In this document: positions 2,460 to 62,577 of the stretch, piece by piece
Layout: each line of letters begins with the position of its first letter
How positions within the stretch are numbered: position 1 is the first letter of the stretch
Assembly: GCA_041671505.1 (NCBI GenBank)
Contig: JBAZBK010000010.1
Coordinates: 46,838-110,837, forward strand
Source: Thermoanaerobaculia bacterium
GTDB lineage: Bacteria; Acidobacteriota; Thermoanaerobaculia; Gp7-AA8
DNA length: 64,000 nt
Direction of reading: 5' to 3'
The notes under the pieces: generated by a model
Seen by the model: the letters and a program-made list of their open reading frames with translations, nothing else
The model's database searches: none
What the model was told of the DNA's origin: nothing
Translations under genes and position numbers: made by a program

Positions 2460-4094
2460 TCACTCGCTGAGAACGACCTTGATGTCGGTCCGGCGGTTCA
2501 GCTGGCGCCCCGCCTCGGTCTCGTTCGTTTCGAGCGGATTCGACGAGCCACGGCCGATCGTCTGGAACCGGGACGGCTCGATGTTCGGGAAGTTCTTGAC
2601 GATGTAGTTCTTCACCGCGATCGCGCGTCTGTCCGACAGCGTGAGATTTGCCGCGACGGAGCCGGTCGAGTCGGTGTTCCCTTCGATGCGCAGGTAGGTG
2701 TTGCCGAACGACGTCATCGTGTCGCCGAGAGCGTCGAGGACGAAGTACGAGCCCGCCATGATCTCGTCCGAGCCGGGGGTGAAGTGAATCTGGATCTGCT
2801 TGTTGATGATCGCGCGGTCGTTCTTCGACGGCGGCTTCGCGGCGATCTTCGGCTCTTCGACCTTCTGTCCGGGGTACTGCGAGGCGAGCGCCGAGAGGAA
2901 GCGCGGATCGGCCCAGTCCTTCGCGTCGATCGCGCGCGTGACCAGCCCCTTCTTGCGCCAGATCACGAACGCCGTATTGAAAAGCGTGTCGTAGTGCGCC
3001 TTGCCGCCCGAGAGCCCGTAGAACTGCGCGTTGTCGGCAAAGGTCGTGAGCTTGAGCCCCGAGAGCATTCCCGAGACCGTCTCACCGTCGAGCTTGAGTG
3101 CGCGCCCGACCACGTCGTACGACGACGCCGGATCCTTCTTCATCATCTCGATCCCCTCGAGCCAGCCGTAGACGAAGTCGCGCACCGTCTCGGGGTAGCG
3201 GTCGATGAGATCCTGACGCGCGACGAGCGTGTCGGCGATGATGTTCGAAGCGGCCGTGGTCGACACGAGGACATGCGCCTCGTCACCGCGCGCGGCGACC
3301 GCGCCCGAAAGATCGGGCTCCCACGTCACGGCGGCGTCGACCTGCTTCGCCTTGAACATCGCGGCGGCGGCAGGCGCATCCTGCGTGAAGATGATGTCCT
3401 TCTCGACCTGGCCGCGATCCTCGGGCGAGAGGCCCGATTGCGCCAGCATGTAGAGAAGAAGGAAGTGCGACGGAGTGAACTGGGTGCAGGCGACCTTGTG
3501 CCCCTTGAGCTGCTCGATCGACTTGATCGACGAGAGCGAGACGATGCCGTCCCCGCCGCGCGACCAGTCCTGGAGGATGATCGACTTCGCCTTCTGGTTC
3601 TGCTCGGAGAGGATCGAGGCCTCGCGCGCCCAGTTGTCGACCGTGTCCCACATGATGTCGACGTCGCCCTTCCGGAACGCCGCGAGCTTCGCGGCCGGAT
3701 CTTCGATCAGAACGAACTTCACGTCGAGACCGAACCGCTGCCGGTACGTCGACGCCGCGCTCGGGTCCATGCCGCCGTTGAACACGATCCCGGGGGCATG
3801 GCCCGCCCAGGTATTGATCGCAACCACGAGCGGCCGGTCGAGTTTGCCGGTTCCGCCGAGCGCCGCCTGCGTCACGCCGTTCGAGCCGACGCCGCGGTCG
3901 GGGTCGGCGGGGGCGTTGTTCAGCGCGGAGAAGTCGGACTGCGAGACTCCCTCGGCGGGAGCCTTGGCTTCCTCGGCGTTCTTGCCGGTCGCCCACTTGC
4001 GGATGTCGGCTCCCTTGTAGTGCCAGGCCGTGTACCCGACGACGACCAGGATGATCAGAGTGATGAAGATCTTCGCGAACGGTGTCAGTTTCAT
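2460..4094 (-). CDS. Membrane-anchored NMT1/SsuA/TauA-like substrate-binding protein fused to a C-terminal OmpA/MotB-like peptidoglycan-binding domain
   Basis: N-terminal TM helix (IFITLIILVVVGYTAW), a central SsuA/NMT1-type SBP fold, and a C-terminal OmpA_C signature (YLRIEGNTDSTGSVAANLTLSDRRAIAVKNYIV...GRGSSNPLETNETEAGRQLNRRTDIKV). First gene of the ABC operon. Confidence 0.8.
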   Translation of the reverse strand: MKLTPFAKIFITLIILVVVGYTAWHYKGADIRKWATGKNAEEAKAPAEGVSQSDFSALNNAPADPDRGVGSNGVTQAALGGTGKLDRPLVVAINTWAGHAPGIVFNGGMDPSAASTYRQRFGLDVKFVLIEDPAAKLAAFRKGDVDIMWDTVDNWAREASILSEQNQKAKSIILQDWSRGGDGIVSLSSIKSIEQLKGHKVACTQFTPSHFLLLYMLAQSGLSPEDRGQVEKDIIFTQDAPAAAAMFKAKQVDAAVTWEPDLSGAVAARGDEAHVLVSTTAASNIIADTLVARQDLIDRYPETVRDFVYGWLEGIEMMKKDPASSYDVVGRALKLDGETVSGMLSGLKLTTFADNAQFYGLSGGKAHYDTLFNTAFVIWRKKGLVTRAIDAKDWADPRFLSALASQYPGQKVEEPKIAAKPPSKNDRAIINKQIQIHFTPGSDEIMAGSYFVLDALGDTMTSFGNTYLRIEGNTDSTGSVAANLTLSDRRAIAVKNYIVKNFPNIEPSRFQTIGRGSSNPLETNETEAGRQLNRRTDIKVVLSE

Positions 4095-4244: not shown

Positions 4245-5195
4245 ATGAACGAACCGACGCGCGGCAGCGCGCTCCTCGTGGGATTCATCGACGCGGGCCC
4301 GGTCGAGTTGGTGAGGCAGTGCGGCTACACCGCTCGAATGGCCCCGCCGTGGGCCGCGCTTCAGGCGGTCCGCGAACGAGAGTGCGACCTCGTGATCGTC
4401 CGCCTCACCGGCGCGTTCCGCGACGTGTTCGACCTGATCGAAGGGGCGCGAACGGAGGGAGTTCCGATTCTCGCCACCGTCACGAACGACGAGCGCGAGC
4501 GCGAGCGTGCATGGGAGGCCGGCGCCTCCGACTGCATCGTCGAGCCGTTCGGAATCGTCGAGCTCAGGCAGAGACTGCGGCTTCAGTCGACGATCGGGGA
4601 TCTGCGCACCGACGTCAGGCGGCTCGAGACCGCGCTGGACGACGCCGCGATCGCGCTCGACGAAGCGCGCGGCGCCGCCACACTGCAGTCGATGAAGGAC
4701 GACCTCACCGGCGTCGGCAACGTGAAGCGCTTCTACACGGCCCTGGAGCTCGAGTGGAAGCGCGCGGCGCGGACGGGTTCGCGTGTCTCGCTGCTGCTGG
4801 CCGACATCGACCAGTTCCGCCTCTACAACGAGCGGAGCGGCCACGCGAGCGGCGACGACTGCCTCAGGGAGATTGCAGGGACGCTCGCCTCCGGCGTGAG
4901 CCGTGCGGGCGACCTGCTTGCGCGCTTCGGCGGCGAGGAGTTCGTCGTACTCCTTCCGTCGACGTCGCACGAGGCGGCGCTCGCCGTCGCCCGGAGGCTC
5001 GCCCAAAACGTCAGGGACCTCGCCCTGCCTCACGAGGCCTCGGCTCCCGGGATCGTGACCGTGAGCTTCGGCGTCGCCACGGCGACACCGTCGGAATCGT
5101 CGGCGCCCGCGTCGCTTCTCGCAGCCGCCGAGGAAGCGCTCCTCGCCGCGAAGGCGGGGGGACGAAACCGGGTCGCCGGCCGTTTCGCCGGTTAG
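4245..5195 (+). CDS. Response-regulator-like (pseudo-receiver) GGDEF diguanylate cyclase
   Basis: GGDEF domain with an intact GGEEF motif (RFGGEEFVVLL) and an RxxD-like context. The N-terminal REC-like domain lacks the phospho-acceptor Asp (DLVIVRL rather than D-hhhh-D). Start taken at ATG 4245 (MNEPTRG). Confidence 0.8.
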   Translation: MNEPTRGSALLVGFIDAGPVELVRQCGYTARMAPPWAALQAVRERECDLVIVRLTGAFRDVFDLIEGARTEGVPILATVTNDERERERAWEAGASDCIVEPFGIVELRQRLRLQSTIGDLRTDVRRLETALDDAAIALDEARGAATLQSMKDDLTGVGNVKRFYTALELEWKRAARTGSRVSLLLADIDQFRLYNERSGHASGDDCLREIAGTLASGVSRAGDLLARFGGEEFVVLLPSTSHEAALAVARRLAQNVRDLALPHEASAPGIVTVSFGVATATPSESSAPASLLAAAEEALLAAKAGGRNRVAGRFAG

Positions 5196-9901: not shown

Positions 9902-9977
9902 CGCCTCTCCTCCTGAAACGGCGCGGGGCGCACGTCGCCGCGCGCCCCGCAACCCGACTCGCTGATTCTCAGCCCGT

Positions 9978-11930
9978 TCAGACGCCCGCGCGGGTCGTGC
10001 CGAGGAGCTGCTCGTTGGTGACGATCTTCGCCGACTTGCGCAGCTTCTCGAGCAGCGAGGTCTGCATGCGGCGAGCCTCGCTGCTGCGGAGGCTCTGCAT
10101 GAACCTCTCCTTCTCGGTCTGCCAGACGGCGGGATCGAACTGCTTCTTCTCGACGATGCGGGCGATCACCGCCCCCTGCTCGACGGCGACGGGGCCGACG
10201 GTCTGTCCCGACGCGCCGGCAAAGACCGCGTCGACGAGCGGAGCGACGTCGCCTGCAAGCTTCTGCACGGCACCGCCGCGGGTCACGTTCGATTCCTCGA
10301 CGGTGAGGCCGAGCTTCTTGGCGACCGCTTCGAGCGGCTCGTTGCCGGCCGCCGTCCGGAGCTCCGCCGCCGCGTTGGCGGCAGCTTTCGCCTTGCGCGC
10401 CTCGGCCTCGACTCGATCCTTCACGTCGGCGAGCTCGGAGATCCCGGCCGGCCGGCTCGAATCGAACCACGCCACGATCGGACCGCGATCGGTGTCGATG
10501 ATCTCGCTGATCTCGCCCGGCTTCGCGGCGAAGGCCCAGTCCGCCAGGCCGGCGACGCGGCCGAGGCCGAAGATCGATCCGCTCTTCTCGAACCACTGCG
10601 TGTCGTTGATCGCGACGTTAGGGCTGGCCTCGGCGATGGCGCGGAGGGCCGCCTCGTCCTTCGGCTTGTCCTTGTCCATCTTCGTGCGCGCGAGCGCGAT
10701 GGCGTCGCGCGCCATCGTCCGCGAGCGCTCGTCGGTATAGCGGCCGACGAGCTCGCCTTTCACTTCCTCGAACGGACGGTATCCCTCGGCGCGCTTCTCG
10801 CTGACGCGAAGGATGTGGTAGCCGAACTGCGTCTTCACCGGGTCGCTGATCTCGCCGATCTTGAGCGAGAACGCGGCGTTCTCGAATTCCGGCACCATGC
10901 GGCCGCGCTCGAAGAAGCCGACGTCGCCGCCGCGCGTCTTCGAGCCGGGGTCCTCGGAGTTCTCCGCGGCGAGCTTGGCGAAATCGGCGCCGGCGCGCAG
11001 CTGGGCGACGAGGGACGCGGCCTTCGCCTTCGCGGCGGCATCGACCGCCGGGGCTGCGTTAGGCGCGACGGGAATCAGGATGTGAGCCGCGCGAACCGAC
11101 TCACGGCTCTTGAAGCTCTCCTTGTTGAGGTCGTAGTACGCCTTCAGGTCGGCGTCGCCGGGAGTGACCTTGGCCCGCAGCTGGGCGAGGTCGGCGATCA
11201 GGTAGCGGACGCGGCGCTGCTCGCCGTGCGCGTACTTGTTCACGTTCGCCTTGTACTGGGCCTCGATCTCCGCCGGGGTGACCTGCAAGTTCACGGCGGC
11301 ACGCTCGCTCGGGAAGAGGACGTACTGGATCTTCGCCGTCTCGCTGCGCTGGCGGTACTCCGCCTCCGCCGCGGCGGGCGAGAGCGCGACAGAGCTCATC
11401 AGCGCACTCTGCATCTTGCGGAGCGTGAGGTCGCGCTTGAGCTCGCGCTCGAAGTCGCTCACCGACGCGTAGCCCTGGCCGAGGATGTAGGTCTTGTAGA
11501 GGTCCGCGCCGACGAACTTGCCGTCGGGGCTCAGCACCGGGATCTCGAGGATCGCCTTGCGGACTTCTTCGTCGGTCGCCTCGAGGTTCAGCCGCTGCGC
11601 CTCCTCCTGGAGGAGCGCCTGATCGACGAGCTGCGCGATCACCTGCTTCTCGAGACCCATCGTCTCGCGCATCTGCGGCGTGATCTTCTGCCCGTACATC
11701 TGCTCGAAGCGCTGCTCCGAGTAGAAGAGTGCGCGACGGTATTCATCGAACGAGATCGTAGCGCCGTTCACGCGAGCCGCGGCGGCGCCGAGATCGTTCT
11801 TGCCGGAACCGCCGGTTCGTCCCGCGCCGCCCCAGTCGACGAAGATCAGAAGAATGAAGAGGGCGACGATAAATACGAGAATCCATTTCAGATGCTGGAA
11901 GCTGTCGCGCATCACCTTAAGCATGGGCAA
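9978..11930 (-). CDS. ppiD: Periplasmic chaperone PpiD (SurA-N domain + parvulin PPIase)
   Basis: N-terminal TM anchor ([15 protein letters not shown]), a SurA_N-like region, and a parvulin domain (...[14 protein letters not shown]...). 650 aa. Confidence 0.75.
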
Positions 11931-25309: not shown

Positions 25310-25386
<77 letters not shown>

Positions 25387-25407
25387 GTATTGTCAATCCA
25401 CGCTATT

Positions 25408-25484
25408 TGGTAGGCGCTATCGGACTCGAACCGATGACCTCTACCGTGTGAAGGTAGCGCTCTAACCAGCTGAGCTAAGCGCCT
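25408..25484 (-). tRNA. tRNA-Val (anticodon CAC)
   Basis: Near-identical scaffold to the adjacent tRNA. Acceptor stem AGGCGCT/AGCGCCT, anticodon loop TTCACAC, encoded CCA. Confidence 0.85.
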
Positions 25485-25582
25485 GCACTGCTGGAGCCCT
25501 CCGAAACTGAGCCTCCACCCTCGGTATTTCCGAGGGACGAGAAGCATAGGGAAGGCCGCGTGGGGAGTCAATAGGAGGATCG

Positions 25583-25696
25583 AAATGACAAATGAAGAAA
25601 TGACAAATGACAAGAGAGGAAGCGCGACCGCTGTCGGGACCCAGGGCCTGGTGGCGTTTTGTCATTTGTCATTTGTCATTTCTCATTTGTCATTCC
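25583..25696. repeat. Foldback hairpin with heptad-repeat arms (subtype A, AAATGAC/TGTCATT heptads)
   Basis: Left arm gaaatgacaaatgaagaaatgacaaatgacaa. Right arm ttgtcatttgtcatttgtcatttctcatttgtcatt (5 x TGTCATT). A ~45-nt loop contains ccagggcc. Lies between the tRNA-Val genes and lysS. Confidence 0.5.
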
Positions 25697-25772
25697 CCAG
25701 TCCTCCCCACCCCCTGGGCTACAATGCGCGCTTCCGGGGGCCCCGGAAAAATCAGGCAGCGGAGATCGCGAC

Positions 25773-29752: not shown

Positions 29753-29793
29753 TTTTCTCCCGTTGTGCCGGAAGTATACGGCGAGATCCGGAC

Positions 29794-29931
29794 GGATTTC
29801 GGATTTCGGATTTGAAAGGCAGCCCGGGTACCTTACTGGTGTGGGCGGAGAAAGCTCATCCGAAACTCAGAGATCGCGAAGCTGGCGAAGCAAATCCGAA
29901 TTCCGAATTCCGAATTCCGAAATCCGAAATC
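29794..29931. repeat. Foldback hairpin with heptad-repeat arms (subtype B, GGATTTC/GAAATCC heptads)
   Basis: Left arm ggatttcggatttcggatttg. Right arm caaatccgaattccgaattccgaattccgaaatccgaaatc. Loop about 80 nt. Confidence 0.5.
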
Positions 29932-29934
29932 ACC

Positions 29935-31514: not shown

Positions 31515-31632
31515 CCTGAAGAACCTGAAGTTAGAACGTAGAACGGTGAATTGAGAACCCAGAAAGGGGGACCGGGCGCCTCCTTCTTTCTGGGTTCTCA
31601 ATTCAACATTCTGCGTTCTAACTTCGGCCTTT
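31515..31632. repeat. Foldback hairpin, subtype E copy 1 (xxxxGAA heptads)
   Basis: cctgaagttagaacgtagaacggtgaattgagaacccagaaagg ... ccttctttctgggttctcaattcaacattctgcgttctaacttcgg. Copies also at 41018-41122 and 62415-62513. Confidence 0.55.
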
Positions 31633-31720
31633 GACCAGACGCTGTCGTCGCCACGCCCGTACCCTCAACAGTGGCCGAACCGGCCCGATTGGTCTAAACT
31701 GCATCAAAGATTGCACTTGG

Positions 31721-32999: not shown

Positions 33000-33148
33000 G
33001 TCATCCCGAGCCCGCGAAGCGGGAGAGGGATCTGCTAACGACCAAGCTGACCGATTCCTCAACCACGAGTCGTGGCATGTGGCACGATCCATCGCCGCGG
33101 AGGCCGCCATTCACCTGTCGGCAGATTCCTCGCTGCGCTCGGAATGAC
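33000..33148. mobile_element. MITE-like palindromic element, copy M2
   Basis: gtcatcccgagcccgcgaagcgggagagggatctgc...gcagattcctcgctgcgctcggaatgac, between the convergent FHA gene and the spoIID-like gene. Confidence 0.5.
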
Positions 33149-37578: not shown

Positions 37579-38298
37579 CTACACCCACTTGCCCGATACG
37601 TTCCTGCGGTAGTCGTCGGCGTCGACCACGACCCGCTCCGCCATCTCGAAGAGCCTGCTACGGAGCCGCTTGCCGATCCGCGTCTCGAGCGACTCTTCCT
37701 TCGGGTCGCGCGGCTCGTCGAGGTAGTTCGTCGTGAAGATCGTCGTCCGCTGCTCGTTGTAGCGCGTGTTGATGATGTAGTAGAGCATGTCCTGCACGAA
37801 GAGCGTCGGCTTCTGCGAGCCGAGCTCGTCGAGCACGAGCAGGTCGGCCGTCAGGATCGGCTCGAGGATCTCCGAGCGGCTCGGCGCGTGGTCCGAGTCG
37901 ATCGACGCGAGAATCTCCTGGATGAGATCCTGGAAGTTCGAAAAGAGAAGCCGCCCCGGCTTCCCTTGCGCAATGATCTCGAGAAGCGCCGCCACGGCGA
38001 GGTGCGTCTTCCCCGAGCCGCACGGCCCCATGAGCAGCAGTCCCCGCTCGGCCATCGGCCACTCGTCGACGAGCCGCGCGATGCGGCGCTTCGCCGAGGC
38101 GAGGGACGGGTTGTTCCGTTCGTGAAATCCCGCGAGCGTGCAGTGCGGCTTGTAGCGCGCGGGGATCTGCGCGTTCTCCCGCTTGAGCGTCCGCCTCATG
38201 TCGGACTGGCAGTTGCAGGGACGCACGTTGAACGTCCCCGGCTCGGGAACCCATCCGGAACCGTTGCAAACCTCGCAGGTCGTCACCACCGTGTCCAC
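37579..38298 (-). CDS. DnaC/DnaI/IstB-family AAA+ ATPase with N-terminal zinc-ribbon
   Basis: N-terminus CEVCNGSGW...PCNCQ (Cys4), Walker A LLLMGPCGSGKTHLAVA, Walker B LLVLDELG, and sensor/arginine finger residues. Confidence 0.7.
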   Translation of the reverse strand: MDTVVTTCEVCNGSGWVPEPGTFNVRPCNCQSDMRRTLKRENAQIPARYKPHCTLAGFHERNNPSLASAKRRIARLVDEWPMAERGLLLMGPCGSGKTHLAVAALLEIIAQGKPGRLLFSNFQDLIQEILASIDSDHAPSRSEILEPILTADLLVLDELGSQKPTLFVQDMLYYIINTRYNEQRTTIFTTNYLDEPRDPKEESLETRIGKRLRSRLFEMAERVVVDADDYRRNVSGKWV

Positions 38299-38336
38299 GG
38301 CCGGATGATACCACCCGCGCGCGGGGCCTCGAGGGG

Positions 38337-38590
38337 GCGGGCGGGGCAGGAAATGTGGAATCCGGAATGCGGTCCGCGGAACGAAAACCGAAATGTAGAA
38401 TGTCGAATGTTGAATGGAGAATGTAGAAAGGGGATTCGAAGACTGGGACCGGAGATTGGGAACGCACGCCGATAGCCGTGGACGCTGACTATTTCAACCG
38501 CGCGAGCGCTTCTCCATTCGACATTCTTCATTCGACATTCTTCATTTCGGTTTTCGTTCGCACTCTGCATCCCGCATTCCGCACGCCGCC
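38337..38590. repeat. 254-bp foldback element with xxGAATG heptad arms (subtype C)
   Basis: Left arm ggcggggcaggaaatgtggaatccggaatgcggtccgcggaacgaaaaccgaaatgtagaatgtcgaatgttgaatggagaatgtagaaagggg. The right arm is its imperfect reverse complement (...cttctccattcgacattcttcattcgacattcttcatttcggttttcgttcgcactctgcatcccgcattccgcacgccgcc). It fills almost the whole 336-bp divergent intergenic region. Confidence 0.55.
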
Positions 38591-38634
38591 ACCCCGCCCC
38601 CCCGGCGCTATACTCCTCCCTCACCACGTCCGCC

Positions 38635-40971
38635 ATGTCACAGCACCTCATCAACTACCTGAGCCTCAAGCCCGAGCAGTCGCCGTTCCTGCTCGCCTCG
38701 GATTTGCCGCGACTCCTGCCGGCGATCTTCACCCGCCCGGAGTGGCTCCTCCCGCGCCCCTACAAGATCTTCTTCATCGACGAGGCGGCGCCCCCAGGCT
38801 TCGGCTTCCCCGTGCTCCACTCCGAAGTGCTGCGCGACCTCGACACGAAGCTCGACCGCTGGCTCGCCGACGAGGTGAAGTGGCAGCTCAAGATGGAAGA
38901 CGCGCGCGAGCGCGCGCGCCAGGCGTTCGGCCAGTACGTCTCGATGGTGGTCAAGATCGCCGAGAACGCGATGCTGTCGAACCTGCTCGCCGACTACCAT
39001 GCGGTCTTCTGGCTCTCCCACTCGCTCGACCTCTCGCGCCACTTCATCAACCTGCCGAAGAGGATCAGCCTCGTCGACACGCAGGCGGCGAAGACCCAGG
39101 CCGACGCGATCAAGTACCGGATCTACTCGAAGTGGGCCGCCGAGATGCGCGAGCAGATGACGCGGCTCGCCGCGCGGCTCGCGCCGACCCTTGACGGCGA
39201 GGAGGAGCGCGGGCTGAAGTTCTTCCGCGTGATCCAGGACAACGTCCTCATTCTCACCGAAGAGTTCATCAGCCCCGACCTCCGGGAGCTGCGTCCCTTC
39301 TTCAACGGATATCTCCATCGCGACTTCTTCGCCTTCCGCGAGATGTTCGAGCGGCTGCAGGGACAGGCGGCGGAGCTCGCAAAGAAGGACGTCACCTTCC
39401 GCGGCCTCGTCGGCCTCTTCGGCGTGAGCCCCGACCAGGGAATCCCCGTCGCGCTGATGCTCGACCAGAAGTTCCAGGACGTCCTCTTCGGACTTCCGGC
39501 AGTCGAGCTGCGGGTCTCGCGCGAGGAACGCGAGCAGCTCCGCTCGCTCTCCCGCCGCCTGCAGGAGTACTCCGTCCTCAACGCGCTGCGGCGCGGCATC
39601 ACCTGGATGGCACAGCTGCCTAACGGCGACACCGTCGCCCTCGACCGGCGCACCGGCGTCGTCTATTCGCGCGCCACCCGCCCCATCGACTTCGGCCGCC
39701 CGGGCGTCGTCGACCCGATGGTCTACCGCTTCGGCCTGATGTACGACATCAGCGCCTTCTCGCAGACCCTCGGTGACGTCGCCCGCACCGGACGCAAGGG
39801 CGAGTTCACCGCCTACCGGCAGATGCTCCTCTTCCAGAAGAAGCTCGCGACGATCACCGACCGCCACGTCCTTCAGTTCGAGAAGTTCCTCGGCGACGGC
39901 GCGTTCTACACGACGCGCCGCGCGCTTCGCCTCGTCCTGGCGTCGATCGAGATCCAGCGCTTCTACTCCGAGATGCGCCGCAAGGGCTTCGCCTTCAACA
40001 AGGGACTCAGGATCGCGCTCAACTACGGCTACTACCGCCTCCTGCCGCTCAAGGGGACGCCCGACTCGCCCGAGCACGTCATCGAGTTCTACGGCCCCGG
40101 CGTCGTCGAGCTCTCGCGCCTGACGACCGGCAAGGCGACGAAGGAAGTCGAGGAGATCCAGACCTTCCTCGTCGCGCACGGCTACGACACGAACGAAGTC
40201 TCGCGCTTCTTCGCGCCACTCGCGTCGGGCGCCGACATGGTCGACAAGGAAATGCACCAGCGCGAGTTCTTCGCCTACGTCAACCAGAACGGGCACCTCG
40301 TGAACGAAGGGCTCGTCTCGTCGATGAGCCTCGTGAGCGAGCTCTCGGGCGAGCTCGCCGCAGAGGGCCACCAGCTCTATCGCATCCAGGCTGCCTGGAG
40401 CAGCTACATCGGCTTCAGCGCCCCGATCGACGGCGTCGACTTCATCGGCGTGAAGCTGATCGGTCGCGTGCAGCTCAAGGGGCTCGGCAAGATCGAGGTG
40501 GCGGAGTTCGTCCCCTTCAATCGCGCCGACGTGACCGAGACGCGCACCGACGACGGCGAAACGCTCTTCAGCCTGCTCCGGCAGGAGTTCCACCAGTCGA
40601 CGCTGACGCGCCCCGACGACGAGTTGCTCGCCCGCTCGACCGGCGAGAGCCGGAAGCCGGTGCAGCAGATCCTCGTCTGTTTCTTCCGCGACCCCGCCAA
40701 CTCTGCTCCCGCGGTCTACCTCGGCGAGTGGGACCCGGCGATGGACTCGCTCCGCAACGCCGTGCGCCTCGCCGACGGCGACCTCGAGTCGCGCCTCGGG
40801 ATCGTGCTCCCCGTCACCGCCGAGGCGCTCGGACGGGAGCGCGAGAACGTCCTCAGCGTTTACCTCGACGAGGCGCGCGACTCCTATCTCCCGTCGATTC
40901 CGATGGACAGCGTCCGCACCCTCCCCGAGCTCCGCCTCTTCCTCGTGGGACTGTCCGTCGAAGCGCTGTAG
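38635..40971 (+). CDS. Large hypothetical protein with a divergent class III nucleotidyl cyclase (CHD)-like palm domain
   Basis: Central region ...VYRFGLMYDISAFSQTL...FLGDGAFYTTRRALRLVLASIEIQR...GLRIALNYGYYRLLPLK...EFYGPGVVELSRLTTG... parallels the cyclase motifs F-x-D-I-x-GFT / K-x-x-GD-x-x-M / R-I-G-I-H-x-G / GDTVN-x-A-SR, with both candidate metal Asp residues present. The flanking about 350-aa N- and 250-aa C-regions are unrecognised. Confidence 0.5.
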   Translation: MSQHLINYLSLKPEQSPFLLASDLPRLLPAIFTRPEWLLPRPYKIFFIDEAAPPGFGFPVLHSEVLRDLDTKLDRWLADEVKWQLKMEDARERARQAFGQYVSMVVKIAENAMLSNLLADYHAVFWLSHSLDLSRHFINLPKRISLVDTQAAKTQADAIKYRIYSKWAAEMREQMTRLAARLAPTLDGEEERGLKFFRVIQDNVLILTEEFISPDLRELRPFFNGYLHRDFFAFREMFERLQGQAAELAKKDVTFRGLVGLFGVSPDQGIPVALMLDQKFQDVLFGLPAVELRVSREEREQLRSLSRRLQEYSVLNALRRGITWMAQLPNGDTVALDRRTGVVYSRATRPIDFGRPGVVDPMVYRFGLMYDISAFSQTLGDVARTGRKGEFTAYRQMLLFQKKLATITDRHVLQFEKFLGDGAFYTTRRALRLVLASIEIQRFYSEMRRKGFAFNKGLRIALNYGYYRLLPLKGTPDSPEHVIEFYGPGVVELSRLTTGKATKEVEEIQTFLVAHGYDTNEVSRFFAPLASGADMVDKEMHQREFFAYVNQNGHLVNEGLVSSMSLVSELSGELAAEGHQLYRIQAAWSSYIGFSAPIDGVDFIGVKLIGRVQLKGLGKIEVAEFVPFNRADVTETRTDDGETLFSLLRQEFHQSTLTRPDDELLARSTGESRKPVQQILVCFFRDPANSAPAVYLGEWDPAMDSLRNAVRLADGDLESRLGIVLPVTAEALGRERENVLSVYLDEARDSYLPSIPMDSVRTLPELRLFLVGLSVEAL

Positions 40972-40980
40972 CAGCAGCGC

Positions 40981-41170
40981 CATCCCGATCCCGCGAAGCG
41001 GGAGAGGGATCTGCAGCTAATTCAAAGGCTGAAGTTAGAACGTAGAACGATGAATGTTGAACCCAGAAAGGCGGGTACCCGTTTCTGGGTTCAAAATTCA
41101 ACGTTCTACGTTCTAACTTCGGCCTCTTCTCCTCCCGCGTACACCTGTCGGCAATGCCGCCGCCTCTGCG
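40981..41170. mobile_element. Truncated MITE copy (M3) with a subtype-E foldback (41018-41122) inserted inside it
   Basis: catcccgatcccgcgaagcgggagagggatctgc matches the left end of M2 at 33/34 positions. After the inserted hairpin, M2-like sequence resumes (cacctgtcggca...). Confidence 0.5.
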
Positions 41171-41226
41171 GCCGCCCCGCACGGCCCATCTTGACACCGC
41201 CCTCCGGAACCGCACTAATTCGCCCC

Positions 41227-42117
41227 ATGAATCACCCCTCGCTCGCAACGACGTCGCTCCCGCTTCCTCTCCATCGCCGCGGCAAAGTGCGCGACGTCTA
41301 CACGCTCGACGATGCGCTCCTGCTCGTCGCGACCGACCGGATCTCGGCCTTCGACGTCGTCCTCTCTCCCGGCGTCACCGGCAAGGGCATCGTCCTCACG
41401 CAGCTCTCGAACTTCTGGTTCCGGAAGTTCGGCTTCGTGAAGAACCACCTGATCGAAACCGACCTCGACCGCTTCCCCGAAGCGCTGCGCGCGCACGGCG
41501 AGCTCCGGGGCCGCGCGGTGATCGCGAGGAAGTGCGAGGTCGTGCCGGTCGAGTGCGTCGCGCGCGGCTACCTCGCCGGATCGGGATGGAAGGAGTACCA
41601 GCAGAACGGCGAGGTCTGCGGCGTCGCGCTCCCCGCGGGGCTCCGCCAGGCGTCGAAGCTCCCCGAGCCGATCTTCACGCCGGCCACGAAGGCGGACGAA
41701 GGGCACGACGAGAACATCCCGTTCGCGCGGATGAGCGATATCGTCGGCGCGGAGCTCGCCGGAAAACTGCGAGACCTGACCCTCACGATCTACACCGAGG
41801 CCGCGGCGTATGCGCGGGAGCGCGGCGTCATCATCGCCGACACCAAGTTCGAGTTCGGAATCGCCGACGGCGAGATCGTGTGGATCGACGAGGCGCTCAC
41901 CCCCGACTCCTCGCGTTTCTGGCCCGAGGCGGAGTATCGCGAGGGGACGAATCCGCCGTCGTTCGACAAACAGTTCGTCCGCGACTGGCTCGAGTCGACC
42001 GGGTGGGACAAGACTCCCCCCGCGCCCGAGCTCCCCGCCGACGTCGTCGAGCGTACCCTCGGAAAGTACCGTGAGGCTTACACGATGCTGACCGGCGCGG
42101 ATCTAGCGCTCGGTTAG
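41227..42117 (+). CDS. purC: Phosphoribosylaminoimidazole-succinocarboxamide synthase (SAICAR synthetase)
   Basis: ...[29 protein letters not shown]... Start at ATG 41227. The upstream part of the ORF overlaps repeats. Confidence 0.9.
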
Positions 42118-50486: not shown

Positions 50487-50682
50487 GCGTCGGGCTCATT
50501 CCATGTCGCGCCGCTGAAGCGGCGCCGTTCATCGTTTGCGCCGACGTTTCCCCCGGTCTTCGACCGGGGGCTAAGTTCGGCCGTCGCTACGCGACGCAAG
50601 AACAAGAAGTAGTTGGCGCTGGCTTGTCTAACAACCAACGACCAACAACTAACAACTCACCACCACCCTCGAACAACCAACC

Positions 50683-57107: not shown

Positions 57108-57212
57108 GACTTTTCGAGGCCCCGCGATGCTGAGTTGCGGGGCCTTGGTGTATTCGGGCGATTTCGTGCGGCGGATGGAACTCGTTCCGCGAGATCTTCG
57201 CTGGATCGACGT

Positions 57213-57581
57213 CAGCGTTCGTCCGCGAAAACCGAAATGTCGAATGTCGAATGAGGAATGAAGAATGGAGAAACAAGGCCCGTCGCATTGACCCTTTCTT
57301 CATTCTTCATTCGACATTCGACATTCGACATTTCGAATTCTCGACCCCCTGCACCGACCTCGCCGATCGCCGAACGCACGCACGGCCCGCCTGAACAAAA
57401 CTCAGCGTTCGTCCGCGAAAACCGAAATGTCGAATGTCGAATGAGGAATGAAGAATGGAGAAACGAGGCCCGCCGCATTGCCCCTTTCTTCATTCTTCAT
57501 TCGACATTCGACATTCGACATTTCGAATTCTCGACCCCCTGCACCGACCTCGCCGATCGCCGAACGCACGCACGGCCCGCC
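57213..57581. repeat. Tandem 190-bp duplication, each unit containing a subtype C/D foldback hairpin (xxGAATG heptads)
   Basis: Unit 1 is 57213-57402 and unit 2 is 57403-~57581, near-identical. Each unit has cgaaaaccgaaatgtcgaatgtcgaatgaggaatgaagaatggagaaa ... tttcttcattcttcattcgacattcgacattcgacatttcgaattctcg. Hairpins at 57226-57343 and 57416-57533. Lies between convergent genes. Confidence 0.6.
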
Positions 57582-57645
57582 ATCAAAGAACAAAGGCCCC
57601 TTTCCGCTCACGCAGAAAGGGGCCGGGATTCAAGACTGACTTCGG

Positions 57646-62308: not shown

Positions 62309-62414
62309 GGTGGGGTCACACCGAAAGATGAAAGTTTGCGGCGGGACCCCACTTCTTCATCTTCTTTTCGGTCTGACTCCAATGGCTTTCTGCTTCGAGT
62401 TAACGGAAGAGAAG

Positions 62415-62513
62415 CCGAAGTTAGAAGTTAGAACGTTGAATGTTGAATCCAGAAAGGCCTGAGCGGCTTCTTTTCTGGGTTCAAAACTCAACGTTCTAAC
62501 TTCTAACTTCAGG
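62415..62513. repeat. Foldback hairpin, subtype E copy 3
   Basis: ccgaagttagaagttagaacgttgaatgttgaatccagaaagg cctgagcggcttc ttttctgggttcaaaactcaacgttctaacttctaacttcagg. Confidence 0.55.
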
Positions 62514-62577
62514 TTTTCCTGCGTGAACTCACCGCCGTTGAGTCTGACCCAGCGGCGGAGGCGGGACGCCTCCGCCA

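Follow-up and report, generated by a model that had tools for sequence, protein, structure and literature searches.

A heptad foldback between two putative divergent promoters of a Thermoanaerobaculia bacterium, read as one copy of a dispersed repeat family

The cyanobacterial STRR sequences are intergenic 7-bp tandem repeats with the units CCCCAGT, TTGGTCA and CAACAGT. Heptamer hairpins of this kind occur between hupS and hupL and upstream of hoxW, and proposals for what they do include transcript stability, translational coupling and termination (PMC2670836). Xanthomonas genomes carry about 185 arrays each of GGGAATC or (GGGANTN)n heptamers, ~90% of them intergenic, including 70–75 close pairs per genome that lie on opposite strands, are "always" convergent and are capable of forming a stem-loop (Rehm et al., 2015, PMC4692102). 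These heptamers, which are G-rich and have been studied as G-quadruplex formers, are mostly located ~28 nt downstream of open reading frames (ORFs), with only 7–8% between divergent genes, and they are not tied to the same genes in two related species (PMC4692102). TAACTGA heptamers are found in Beggiatoaceae, Cyanobacteria and Bacteroidetes, and it has been suggested that an RNA-binding regulator, not yet identified, acts on them (MacGregor, 2015, PMC4679880). More generally, heptameric repeats are over-represented in many bacteria and hardly studied, and their excess has been known since STRR work of 1990 and a survey of 2007 (dates per Rehm et al., PMC4692102). Here we analyze a heptad foldback at positions 38337–38590 of a 64,000-nt stretch of DNA (contig JBAZBK010000010.1 of assembly GCA_041671505.1, Thermoanaerobaculia, Acidobacteriota; the 64-kb window hereafter), which lies between the divergent genes for a DnaC/IstB-like AAA+ ATPase and for a conserved 778-aa protein, and we compare it with these systems, with other copies in the window and with the orthologous region of related genomes, whose loci are denoted by L-numbers.

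The left heptad series (38349–38430) reads GGAAATG TGGAATC CGGAATG CGGTCCG CGGAACG AAAAC CGAAATG TAGAATG TCGAATG TTGAATG GAGAATG TAGAAAG, and 38510–38582 is its imperfect reverse complement. Self-comparison with blastn gives an inverted match of 95 nt (78% identity, E = 2.6e-13), while a repeat search resolves core arms at 38379–38428 and 38510–38559 (50 nt, 88% complementary, 81 nt between them) and outer arms at 38330–38346 (G-rich) and 38592–38604 (C-rich), and TRF detects period 7 at 38392–38428 and 38510–38546. The initial annotation had described the foldback correctly, with the heptads exactly as listed, imperfect arms of about 95 bp and a loop of ~80 nt, and its statement that the element fills nearly the whole divergent region and leaves about 40 bp of unique sequence on either side also holds, since the element covers 76% of the 336-bp intergenic region and the unique flanks measure 38 bp (38299–38336) on the left and 44 bp (38591–38634) on the right. 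The purine-rich (GAATG) arm comes first, so that the arrays are convergent on opposite strands and stem-loop-capable. For 38325–38610 (286 nt), the predicted RNA fold has −146 kcal/mol (z = −8.3) and the DNA fold −77 kcal/mol (z = −6.8), and none of 200 dinucleotide-preserving shuffles was as stable in either case. Within the window, GAATGNNGAATG with at most one mismatch occurs 37 times against 2.3 expected, and a self-similarity scan finds nine arrays of period 7 against 0–3 for periods 5, 6 and 8–12. Among the self-blastn rows inspected, the loop (38431–38509) matches nothing else, either within the window or at the loci.

Whereas the initial annotation took the element for a peculiarity of this locus, it is one copy of a dispersed repeat family with fast turnover. 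We aligned 11 elements of ~100 nt from five genomes (the window, L001, L003, L132 and L134; alignment A3), leaving out the target and its closest paralogues, and built a covariance model, R1, from this alignment, i.e., from other copies only. R1 scores the target at 38382–38557 with 78.4 bits (E ~2e-16, full model), and because the target had been excluded from R1, it is recognized as a member without having helped to define the family. By the same model, the window contains 7–8 copies, about one per 8 kb, and the relatives contain 0–4, most of them 1–4, per 14–22 kb. The target is a large member, consisting of the canonical unit at 38382–38557 plus extra degenerate heptads at 38349–38381 and 38560–38582, with 7–12 heptads per arm where the family has about six.

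In A3, all 11 copies show invariant triplets spaced at exactly 7-nt phase, (A)GAA in the 5′ arm and TTC(T) in the 3′ arm, with variable spacers between them. The alignment is compatible with a single helix of 41 pairs, in which 92.7% of the cells are paired and 18 of the 41 pairs show compensatory changes on both sides; no column shuffle among 500 matched this pairing or covariation, and sliding the 3′ partner by one to three columns reduced pairing to 32–48%. G:U pairs number about 8 against 6 A:C mismatches in A3, and about 11 against 8 in alignment A2. The loops, which range from ~10 to ~190 nt across the family, are unrelated between copies. Heptads of the types GAATGnn, GAAGTTA, AAATGAC and CCGAAAT occur within one genome. 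The copies at 31527–31626 and 41026–41128 have the heptads GAAGTTA GAACGTA GAACGAT GAATTGA GAACCCA GAAAGG; since these six heptads all differ, both copies were missed by the periodicity scan, and they were found by blastn of relatives. By repeat or periodicity search, other foldbacks of the window span 25582–25702, 29793–29931, 57212–57581 and 62414–62515. The features are collected in Table 1.

Table 1. Features of the focal locus, family copies in the window, and orthologous intergenic regions.
Feature	Position or length	Strand	Basis and remarks
GTG start of the DnaC/IstB-like AAA+ ATPase gene (37579–38298)	38296–38298	−	ORF list; Pfam IstB_IS21 and Bac_DnaA matches
Extended −10-like box TGGTATCAT	38305–38313	−	6 nt upstream of the DnaC-like GTG, outside the element; putative promoter
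G-rich flank CGAGGGGGCGGGCGGGGC	38330–38347		pairs with C-rich flank; conserved flank; homology with L001/L003 up to 38347/38339
Outer degenerate left heptads, GGAAATG TGGAATC CGGAATG CGGTCCG CGGAA	38349–38381		weak pairing with 38560–38582 in predicted fold
Core 5′ arm, GAA-phased, CGAAAAC CGAAATG to TAGAAAG	38382–38430		left half of R1 match 38382–38557
Loop of ~80 nt, G+C-rich, unique	38431–38509		only the first ~20 nt, GGGGATTCGAAGACTGGG, resemble the L003/L004 copy
Core 3′ arm, TTC-phased heptads complementary to the 5′ arm	38510–38559		repeat search, TRF, R1
Outer degenerate right heptads GCACTCTGCATCCCGCATTCCGC	38560–38582		sequence, predicted fold
C-rich flank, conserved in L001 and L003	38583–38604		homology resumes at 38580 (L001) and 38592 (L003)
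−10-like box TATACT	38609–38614	+	20 nt before the start of the 778-aa gene, outside the element; putative promoter
ATG of the conserved 778-aa protein gene (38635–40971)	38635–38637	+	ORF list; homologue alignment over 100% of length
Divergent copy, GAAATGA / CAAATGA heptads	25568–25711		between tRNA-Val promoter and plus-strand gene; 41 bits
Marginal copy, CGGATTT ... CCGAATT heptads	29782–29934 (R1 match to 29927)		18 bits, E = 0.14
Core-type copy, ~100 bp, GAAGTTA GAACGTA GAACGGT GAATTGA GAACCCA GAAAGGG	31518–31635		divergent intergenic; 110.7 bits; orthologous to L003 3052–3169
Copy between the 778-aa and SAICAR synthase genes	41022–41130		108.4 bits; absent from L006, L128 and L131
Closest paralogue, same xxGAATG subtype; first unit of tandem duplication	57226–57343		between convergent genes; 90% identity over 48 nt (blastn); ~90 bits
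Second unit of tandem duplication	57416–57533		~90 bits
Copy between two minus-strand genes	62408–62520		105.8 bits
Orthologous region, L133	41 bp (9960–10000)		no foldback; single, perfectly palindromic AGTATACT, 7 nt from the DnaC-like ATG
Orthologous region, L135	61 bp		no foldback
Orthologous region, L129	94 bp		no foldback
Orthologous region, L006	127 bp		no foldback
Orthologous region, L128	201 bp		no clear heptads
Orthologous region, window and L003/L004			shared xxGAAYG foldback
Orthologous region, L001			GAAGTTA-type unit of ~100 bp
Orthologous region, L131			CAGATGT heptads (no GAA at all) around GC hairpin
Orthologous region, L132			GAAGTCA-type foldback; left neighbor gene different
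Orthologous region, L134			GAATGAA/GAACGCA type, exactly between both boxes

The family resembles the Xanthomonas repeats in its 7-nt units with fixed and free positions, its intergenic and dispersed occurrence, its convergent pairs and its non-orthologous sites. The Xanthomonas unit GGGAATC is itself similar to the TGGAATC and CGGAATG heptads found here, although there is only one TGGAATC unit, at 38356–38362. However, here a defined palindromic unit of ~100 nt, made of six non-identical heptads, is copied whole, the host belongs to the Acidobacteriota, and the units, GAATGnn or GAAnnnn, differ from those of the described families (GGGAATC and the STRR units). With STRR sequences the family shares dispersed, hairpin-capable tandem repeats of 7 bp in intergenic DNA, whereas STRR are described as homogeneous arrays rather than as a transposed palindromic unit, and neither phased-triplet invariance nor covariation of the arms is reported for them. 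The TAACTGA heptamers likewise form intergenic arrays near start codons and are scattered unevenly across phyla, but they have another unit, are located in 5′ untranslated regions and are almost always direct (169 sets against one inverted; PMC4679880). We regard the heptad foldback as a further representative of the known heptamer-repeat kind, new in its unit sequence, its host phylum and its six-heptad unit copied as a whole.

Beyond heptamers, the family is comparable to the REP/BIME-RAYT system in being highly repeated, intergenic, imperfectly palindromic, free of target-site duplications and species-specific in sequence (PMC3333891), and by extrapolation it would reach hundreds of copies per genome, as REP do. 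REP are 20–40 nt long with a GTAG-type head and no heptad periodicity (PMC3333891), whereas here the arms are 42–95 nt long and have no GTAG head. A hairpin-specific, single-strand mechanism similar to that of REP would explain the covariation of the arms. MITE-like palindromes such as Correia/NEMIS, ERIC and RUP are also non-coding intergenic foldbacks of 100–250 bp with presence/absence polymorphism, and they too are sometimes located in gene ends (PMC2229807), as is the copy lying in frame in the start of yfhO in L134. Unlike in MITEs, no target-site duplications or discrete terminal inverted repeats were seen in six copies examined here, the arm is a periodic array over its full length, and different copies have unrelated loops.

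The copy that L001 carries at the focal locus shares 85% identity with the copies at two further loci of the window, 31527 and 41026. L134 has three near-identical copies, and for one of these (4825–4954) there is no counterpart at the corresponding operon junction of L133 or L135; presence or absence at a collinear site was also found for window 41016–41152 relative to L006. No direct repeat of 2 bp or more that could be a target-site duplication flanks the copies at window 31527, 41026 and 62414, at L001 5991, or the three L134 copies, and none of the family copies examined has sharp ends or discrete terminal inverted repeats. Outside the focal locus, copies whose neighbors are annotated lie in two divergent, seven tandem and four convergent intergenic regions. 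This split is close to the generic 1:2:1, and thus indicates no functional positional bias and no tie to promoters or terminators. We had considered that the foldbacks preferentially abut promoters or start codons, and rejected this because the bias vanished in the same tally.

The orthologous span between the DnaC-like gene and the 778-aa gene was compared in the window and 10 other genomes or strains, whose 778-aa proteins are 53–93% identical to that of the window; the DnaC-like neighbor is kept in 10 of the 11 regions. The stretch between the two −10-like boxes is the only variable part of these regions. It contains heptad foldbacks unrelated to one another in five independent lineages, and it is empty (41–127 bp) in four genomes. 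Homology of the window with L001 breaks at 38347 and 38580, and with L003 at 38339 and 38592 (blastn), which implies that the exchange was confined to the cassette that the G-rich and C-rich flanks enclose. The initial annotation had suggested comparing this region in relatives, and the outcome is that the cassette is absent from four of them and replaced by other heptad foldbacks elsewhere. We also considered the G-rich and C-rich outer stems as part of the element, and rejected this because L001 and L003 retain them as flanks around a cassette that has been replaced. In L133, the single palindromic box may be one bidirectional −10 box serving both genes, and its 41-bp region could be the ancestral compact state that was later split by foldbacks.

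Rapid change was observed between L003 and L004, which encode the same 778-aa protein: they differ at 4 of 2,337 bases in the gene and at none of the 136 positions in the next intergenic region, whereas the focal region shows 22 substitutions and 29 gap columns, an excess divergence of about 40-fold, with different C-run lengths. The indels comprise 14 nt in one arm and 6 + 1 nt (7 in total) in the other, so that the arms are now unequal in heptad number. As read from this alignment, there is apparent slippage in heptad units, and arm symmetry is evidently not maintained in that lineage.

The two boxes that border this variable stretch are conserved. On the DnaC side, the box is present in all 10 orthologues with this neighbor (TATCAT in seven, one of them TATGAT, TATACT in one and TAAACT in two), ends 6–9 nt before the start codon, and often has TG two bases upstream. 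On the other side, TATACT is found in 10 of the 11 regions and CATACT in the remaining one, 8–28 nt before the start codon of the 778-aa gene, whose leader of 20 nt in the window has no evident Shine-Dalgarno sequence. No −35 hexamer is detectable, with or without the element, and a consensus scan found no consensus sigma-70 promoter in 38000–38900. The boxes are best read as putative −10 elements of one leaderless and one short-leader transcript, the 6-nt spacing between TGGTATCAT and the GTG implying that the DnaC-like transcript would be leaderless. Leaderless GTG starts are known from mycobacteria. This reading is supported by the SAICAR synthase gene, for which a canonical promoter with a leaderless start, TTGACA-N17-TAATTC-N5-ATG, is conserved in four genomes (window ~41170–41215, L001, L003 and L006), and judging from this arrangement, leaderless starts are apparently normal in this lineage. 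Because of the same conserved arrangement, the mechanically called SAICAR synthase ORF at 41050–42117 (355 aa) is ~60 codons too long.

The candidate −10 that the initial annotation had placed at 38609–38614 is very probably real, given that TATACT or CATACT is at the same place in all 11 regions. However, its proposal that both promoters lie within or are shaped by the element does not agree with the data, as both boxes are outside the element and are conserved also in four relatives free of the foldback. Since these four keep both boxes and both genes, the core promoters appear independent of the element. As we read it, the element is upstream of two conserved putative promoters, and it neither contains nor forms them.

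Taken together, we hypothesize, with a probability of roughly 55%, that we are dealing with a palindromic repeat, selfish and hypermutable, which is tolerated upstream of two promoters lacking a −35 box. The many similar copies per genome at non-orthologous sites, the absence of target-site duplications and the variable loops argue for such copy-and-paste spread, and from this distribution we infer that the family is mobile. In this scenario, the family would consist of lineage-wide, non-coding palindromic repeats that spread by copy-and-paste and then diversify fast by heptad slippage and by exchange between copies. One copy would have landed in the permissive gap between back-to-back promoters, TGGTATCAT-N6-GTG on one side and TATACT with a 20-nt leader on the other, where the element would occupy roughly −30 to −290 of each promoter. 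It would be neither promoter and be transcribed from neither, and its effect would most likely be passive, pushing the promoters ~230 bp apart and placing A+T-rich DNA at the position of an UP element or activator. A role as RNA is unlikely for this copy because both conserved promoters fire away from it, and the copy is probably neutral or only modulatory.

Several observations weigh against the hypothesis of a tolerated selfish repeat. The GAA/TTC phasing is invariant across genomes in which the flanking protein is only ~55% identical, which implies a sequence-specific constraint, imposed by a mobilizing enzyme or by a host factor. No transposase, target-site duplication or sharply defined ends were found, so that mobility is deduced from the distribution of copies only. 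Further, the focal region is occupied in about five independent lineages of about 10, compared with ~13% of intergenic regions overall (p ~0.02 in a rough binomial estimate with the window's own lineage left out), and this excess, which is only suggestive, could point to a site that is targeted or at which the element brings a benefit. The element may also affect either promoter through a UP-like region, curvature or a bound protein.

The same arrays are found well beyond this lineage. The exact pattern (GAATGNN)3GAATG has at least 120 stretches in species-representative genomes of many phyla (L007–L126), including Cyanobacteria, Verrucomicrobiota, Bacteroidota, Chloroflexota, Acidobacteriota, Planctomycetota, Gemmatimonadota, Nitrospira and others. 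Among the matches listed, about one fifth of the arrays have an inverted partner within 300 nt, and, again among those listed, GAATG comes first in 26 loci and CATTC first in one, a ratio that is informative only as far as the origins are independent; a palindrome keeps its polarity whichever way it is inserted, so that uniformity within a family is trivial. Many of the cross-phylum foldbacks score 30–67 bits with R1. A scan of viral contigs with the family pattern gave two matches, one of which fits R1 (L137 591–798, IMG/VR, 60 bits). No description of this family was found in Rfam or in full-text literature searches, and with Rfam 15 at gathering thresholds only two tRNAs pass in the whole window.

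Alternatively, an oligomeric nucleic-acid-binding protein might read the phased GAA-N4 heptads, about six per arm and inverted. HutP reads UAG-N4 repeats and TRAP reads GAG repeats, and a protein of this kind could act on the RNA; on double-stranded DNA, the reader could be a nucleoid or regulatory protein serving both promoters. In either case, the family would serve regulation or structure across the whole genome. We consider this unlikely, even though it best explains the invariance of the (A)GAA and TTC(T) triplets at 7-nt phase in 11 copies of five genomes across deep divergence while the spacers are free. It would also accommodate foldbacks of other phyla (L050 and L113) that keep GAATG cores although the 2-nt spacers of their arms are not complementary, as well as the position of the arms, which end a few bases from both −10 boxes in L131 and L134 and ~30–100 bp upstream in the window. 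However, no candidate binder is known, the heptads differ between subfamilies in one genome, and the CAGATGT heptads of L131 have no GAA. In addition, the copies follow no positional rule and are present in intergenic regions of all types, four orthologues are without the element, and the arms of L003 and L004 gain and lose heptads independently. In a bolder and still more doubtful form of this idea, the phased triplets and the single polarity would represent an undescribed, widespread recognition code, read by an oligomeric protein on single-stranded nucleic acid or on duplex DNA. If so, the reader could be a mobilizing enzyme or a global regulator similar to HutP or TRAP, the STRR, GGGAATC and TAACTGA heptamer excess would be its footprint, and at the focal locus this protein, bound to both arms, would control the 778-aa gene and the DnaC-like operon together.

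The strong hairpin with its compensatory changes might instead form a bidirectional transcription barrier or an RNA end, i.e., a terminator, insulator or 3′-end stabilizer in a G+C-rich genome poor in U-tracts. Transcribed from either side, the palindrome gives a purine-rich 5′ arm and a U-rich 3′ arm, and at the focal locus it would keep the antisense transcripts that either promoter directs upstream out of the opposite gene. The polarity of 26 to 1 among the matches listed would fit, and agrees with the "always convergent" Xanthomonas pairs ~28 nt after ORFs (PMC4692102), and STRR hairpins have been proposed to stabilize or terminate transcripts (PMC2670836). However, descendants of a palindrome keep their polarity automatically, and thus its uniformity within the family is not evidence of selection. 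Similarly, 11 of the 13 copies outside the focal locus face at least one gene 3′ end, which is the chance level, as tandem and convergent regions make up ~75% of intergenic regions. This copy lies between two outward-firing promoters with no known transcript crossing it, no terminator-like site (a G+C-rich stem followed by a T-run) was found in 38000–38900, where both flanking genes point away from the element, and the G:U pairs are not in excess over A:C mismatches (~8 against 6). We therefore regard a barrier as improbable.

It is less probable again that the element is a contingency (phase-variable) repeat, in which the number of heptads tunes or switches the flanking genes. Such control by 7-bp repeats upstream of the gene is documented for hmw1A and hmw2A of Haemophilus influenzae (PMC8262952, PMC12721329). 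The heptad-multiple indels between L003 and L004 (14 nt, 6 + 1 nt), their ~40-fold excess divergence and the position of the element directly upstream of two promoters would be expected of a repeat of this type. However, the repeats lie upstream of both −10 boxes rather than between promoter elements or in a 5′ untranslated region, and without a −35 box to re-space, there is no obvious route by which the repeat number could act. The heptads are heterogeneous, with no pure tract, and the family is also present between convergent genes, where there is no promoter.

A supercoil-sensitive cruciform coupling both promoters is very improbable, since, although negative supercoiling accumulates between divergent promoters (the twin-domain model) and the long imperfect inverted repeat has A+T-rich arms and a DNA fold of z = −6.8, cruciforms need short spacers and the 81-nt spacer with 12–22% arm mismatch would make extrusion kinetically very unfavorable, family loops range from ~10 to ~190 nt, and four orthologues are without the element.

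The heptamer excess in bacterial intergenic DNA has long been noted and is still unexplained. For this question, the focal locus is an unusually clean natural experiment, in which one promoter pair is either empty or holds one of five independently acquired foldbacks, and the nearly identical strain pair L003/L004, differing only in the focal region, provides an added comparison. The family also supplies a concrete rule for binding or transcription assays, namely GAA every 7 nt, covarying spacers and the purine-rich arm first. For genome annotation, the result cautions against taking elements of this type for promoters or structured RNA genes, and gene callers can run ORFs through them, as with yfhO in L134 and the 355-aa SAICAR synthase ORF in the window.

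With regard to the flanking genes, the start codons assigned by the initial annotation (38298 on the minus strand and 38635 on the plus strand) both agree with homologues. Relatives of the DnaC-like protein are called at 236–244 aa with the same N-terminus in five relatives, whereas two callers picked a 206-aa start, and all matches of the protein against NCBIfam are below the cut-offs. The 778-aa protein has no match in Pfam, NCBIfam or PDB sequence searches; the label "cyclase-like" given to it is unconfirmed, as only two source annotations of homologues use this name. A metagenome scan with the 778-aa protein gave one partial locus that did not include the upstream region.

Two other likenesses were set aside. 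The best Rfam match under permissive settings, the plant microRNA model MIR1437 (47 bits against a threshold of 168), was taken as a generic match to a long hairpin, and the likeness of single heptads to the Spo0A box (TGTCGAA), Fur-box hexamers and CIRCE half-sites was judged coincidental, since the variable positions differ between copies.

Other observations concern promoters and genes next to family copies. Two tRNA-Val genes (25310–25484) are preceded by TTGACT-N17-TATGCT (25543–25571, minus strand), with the −35 hexamer only ~10 nt from the first heptad of the copy at 25568–25711 and an A+T-rich arm at the position of an UP element. At three promoters, C-runs on the non-template strand, with G-runs opposite, separate the heptad arm from the −10-like box (38330–38347 and 38583–38604 at the focal locus, and 25696–25717); G-quadruplexes are possible in the opposite G-runs, and the C-run length differs between L003 and L004. 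The 355-aa SAICAR synthase ORF runs through the copy at 41022–41130. In L134, a copy (4820–4932) is inserted at the ATGA junction where the stop of the peptidase M20 gene overlaps the start of yfhO. As this copy is in frame and free of stop codons, the called YfhO begins at the edge of the element and carries ~35 element-encoded residues (comparison sites: L133 ~4889–4933 and L135 ~3093–3119).

A second, unrelated repeat family consists of a G+C-rich hairpin, (T/C)CATCCCGAnCCCGCGAAGCGGGAGAGGGATCTG, just after stop codons, with copies at 33001–33034 and 40980–41013 of the window (two against 0 expected) and at L001 8503–8550; a related hairpin is located inside the loop of a heptad foldback at L131 ~845–985, forming nested palindromes. 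At 50626–50668, an AACAACC-type heptad array is one-armed, with no inverted partner nearby. Arrays of four or more (GAATGnn)n units are often chained with other heptad arrays (L007, L024, L028, L033 and L035), and several acidobacterial and Gemmatimonadota loci have 2–4 foldbacks per 8 kb (L036, L063, L031 and L091). Finally, 57212–57581 of the window is a tandem duplication (98% identity) of a 190-bp unit between convergent genes, in which each unit comprises a complete xxGAATG foldback and ~80 nt of unique flank, followed by a separate GC hairpin at ~57593–57625.

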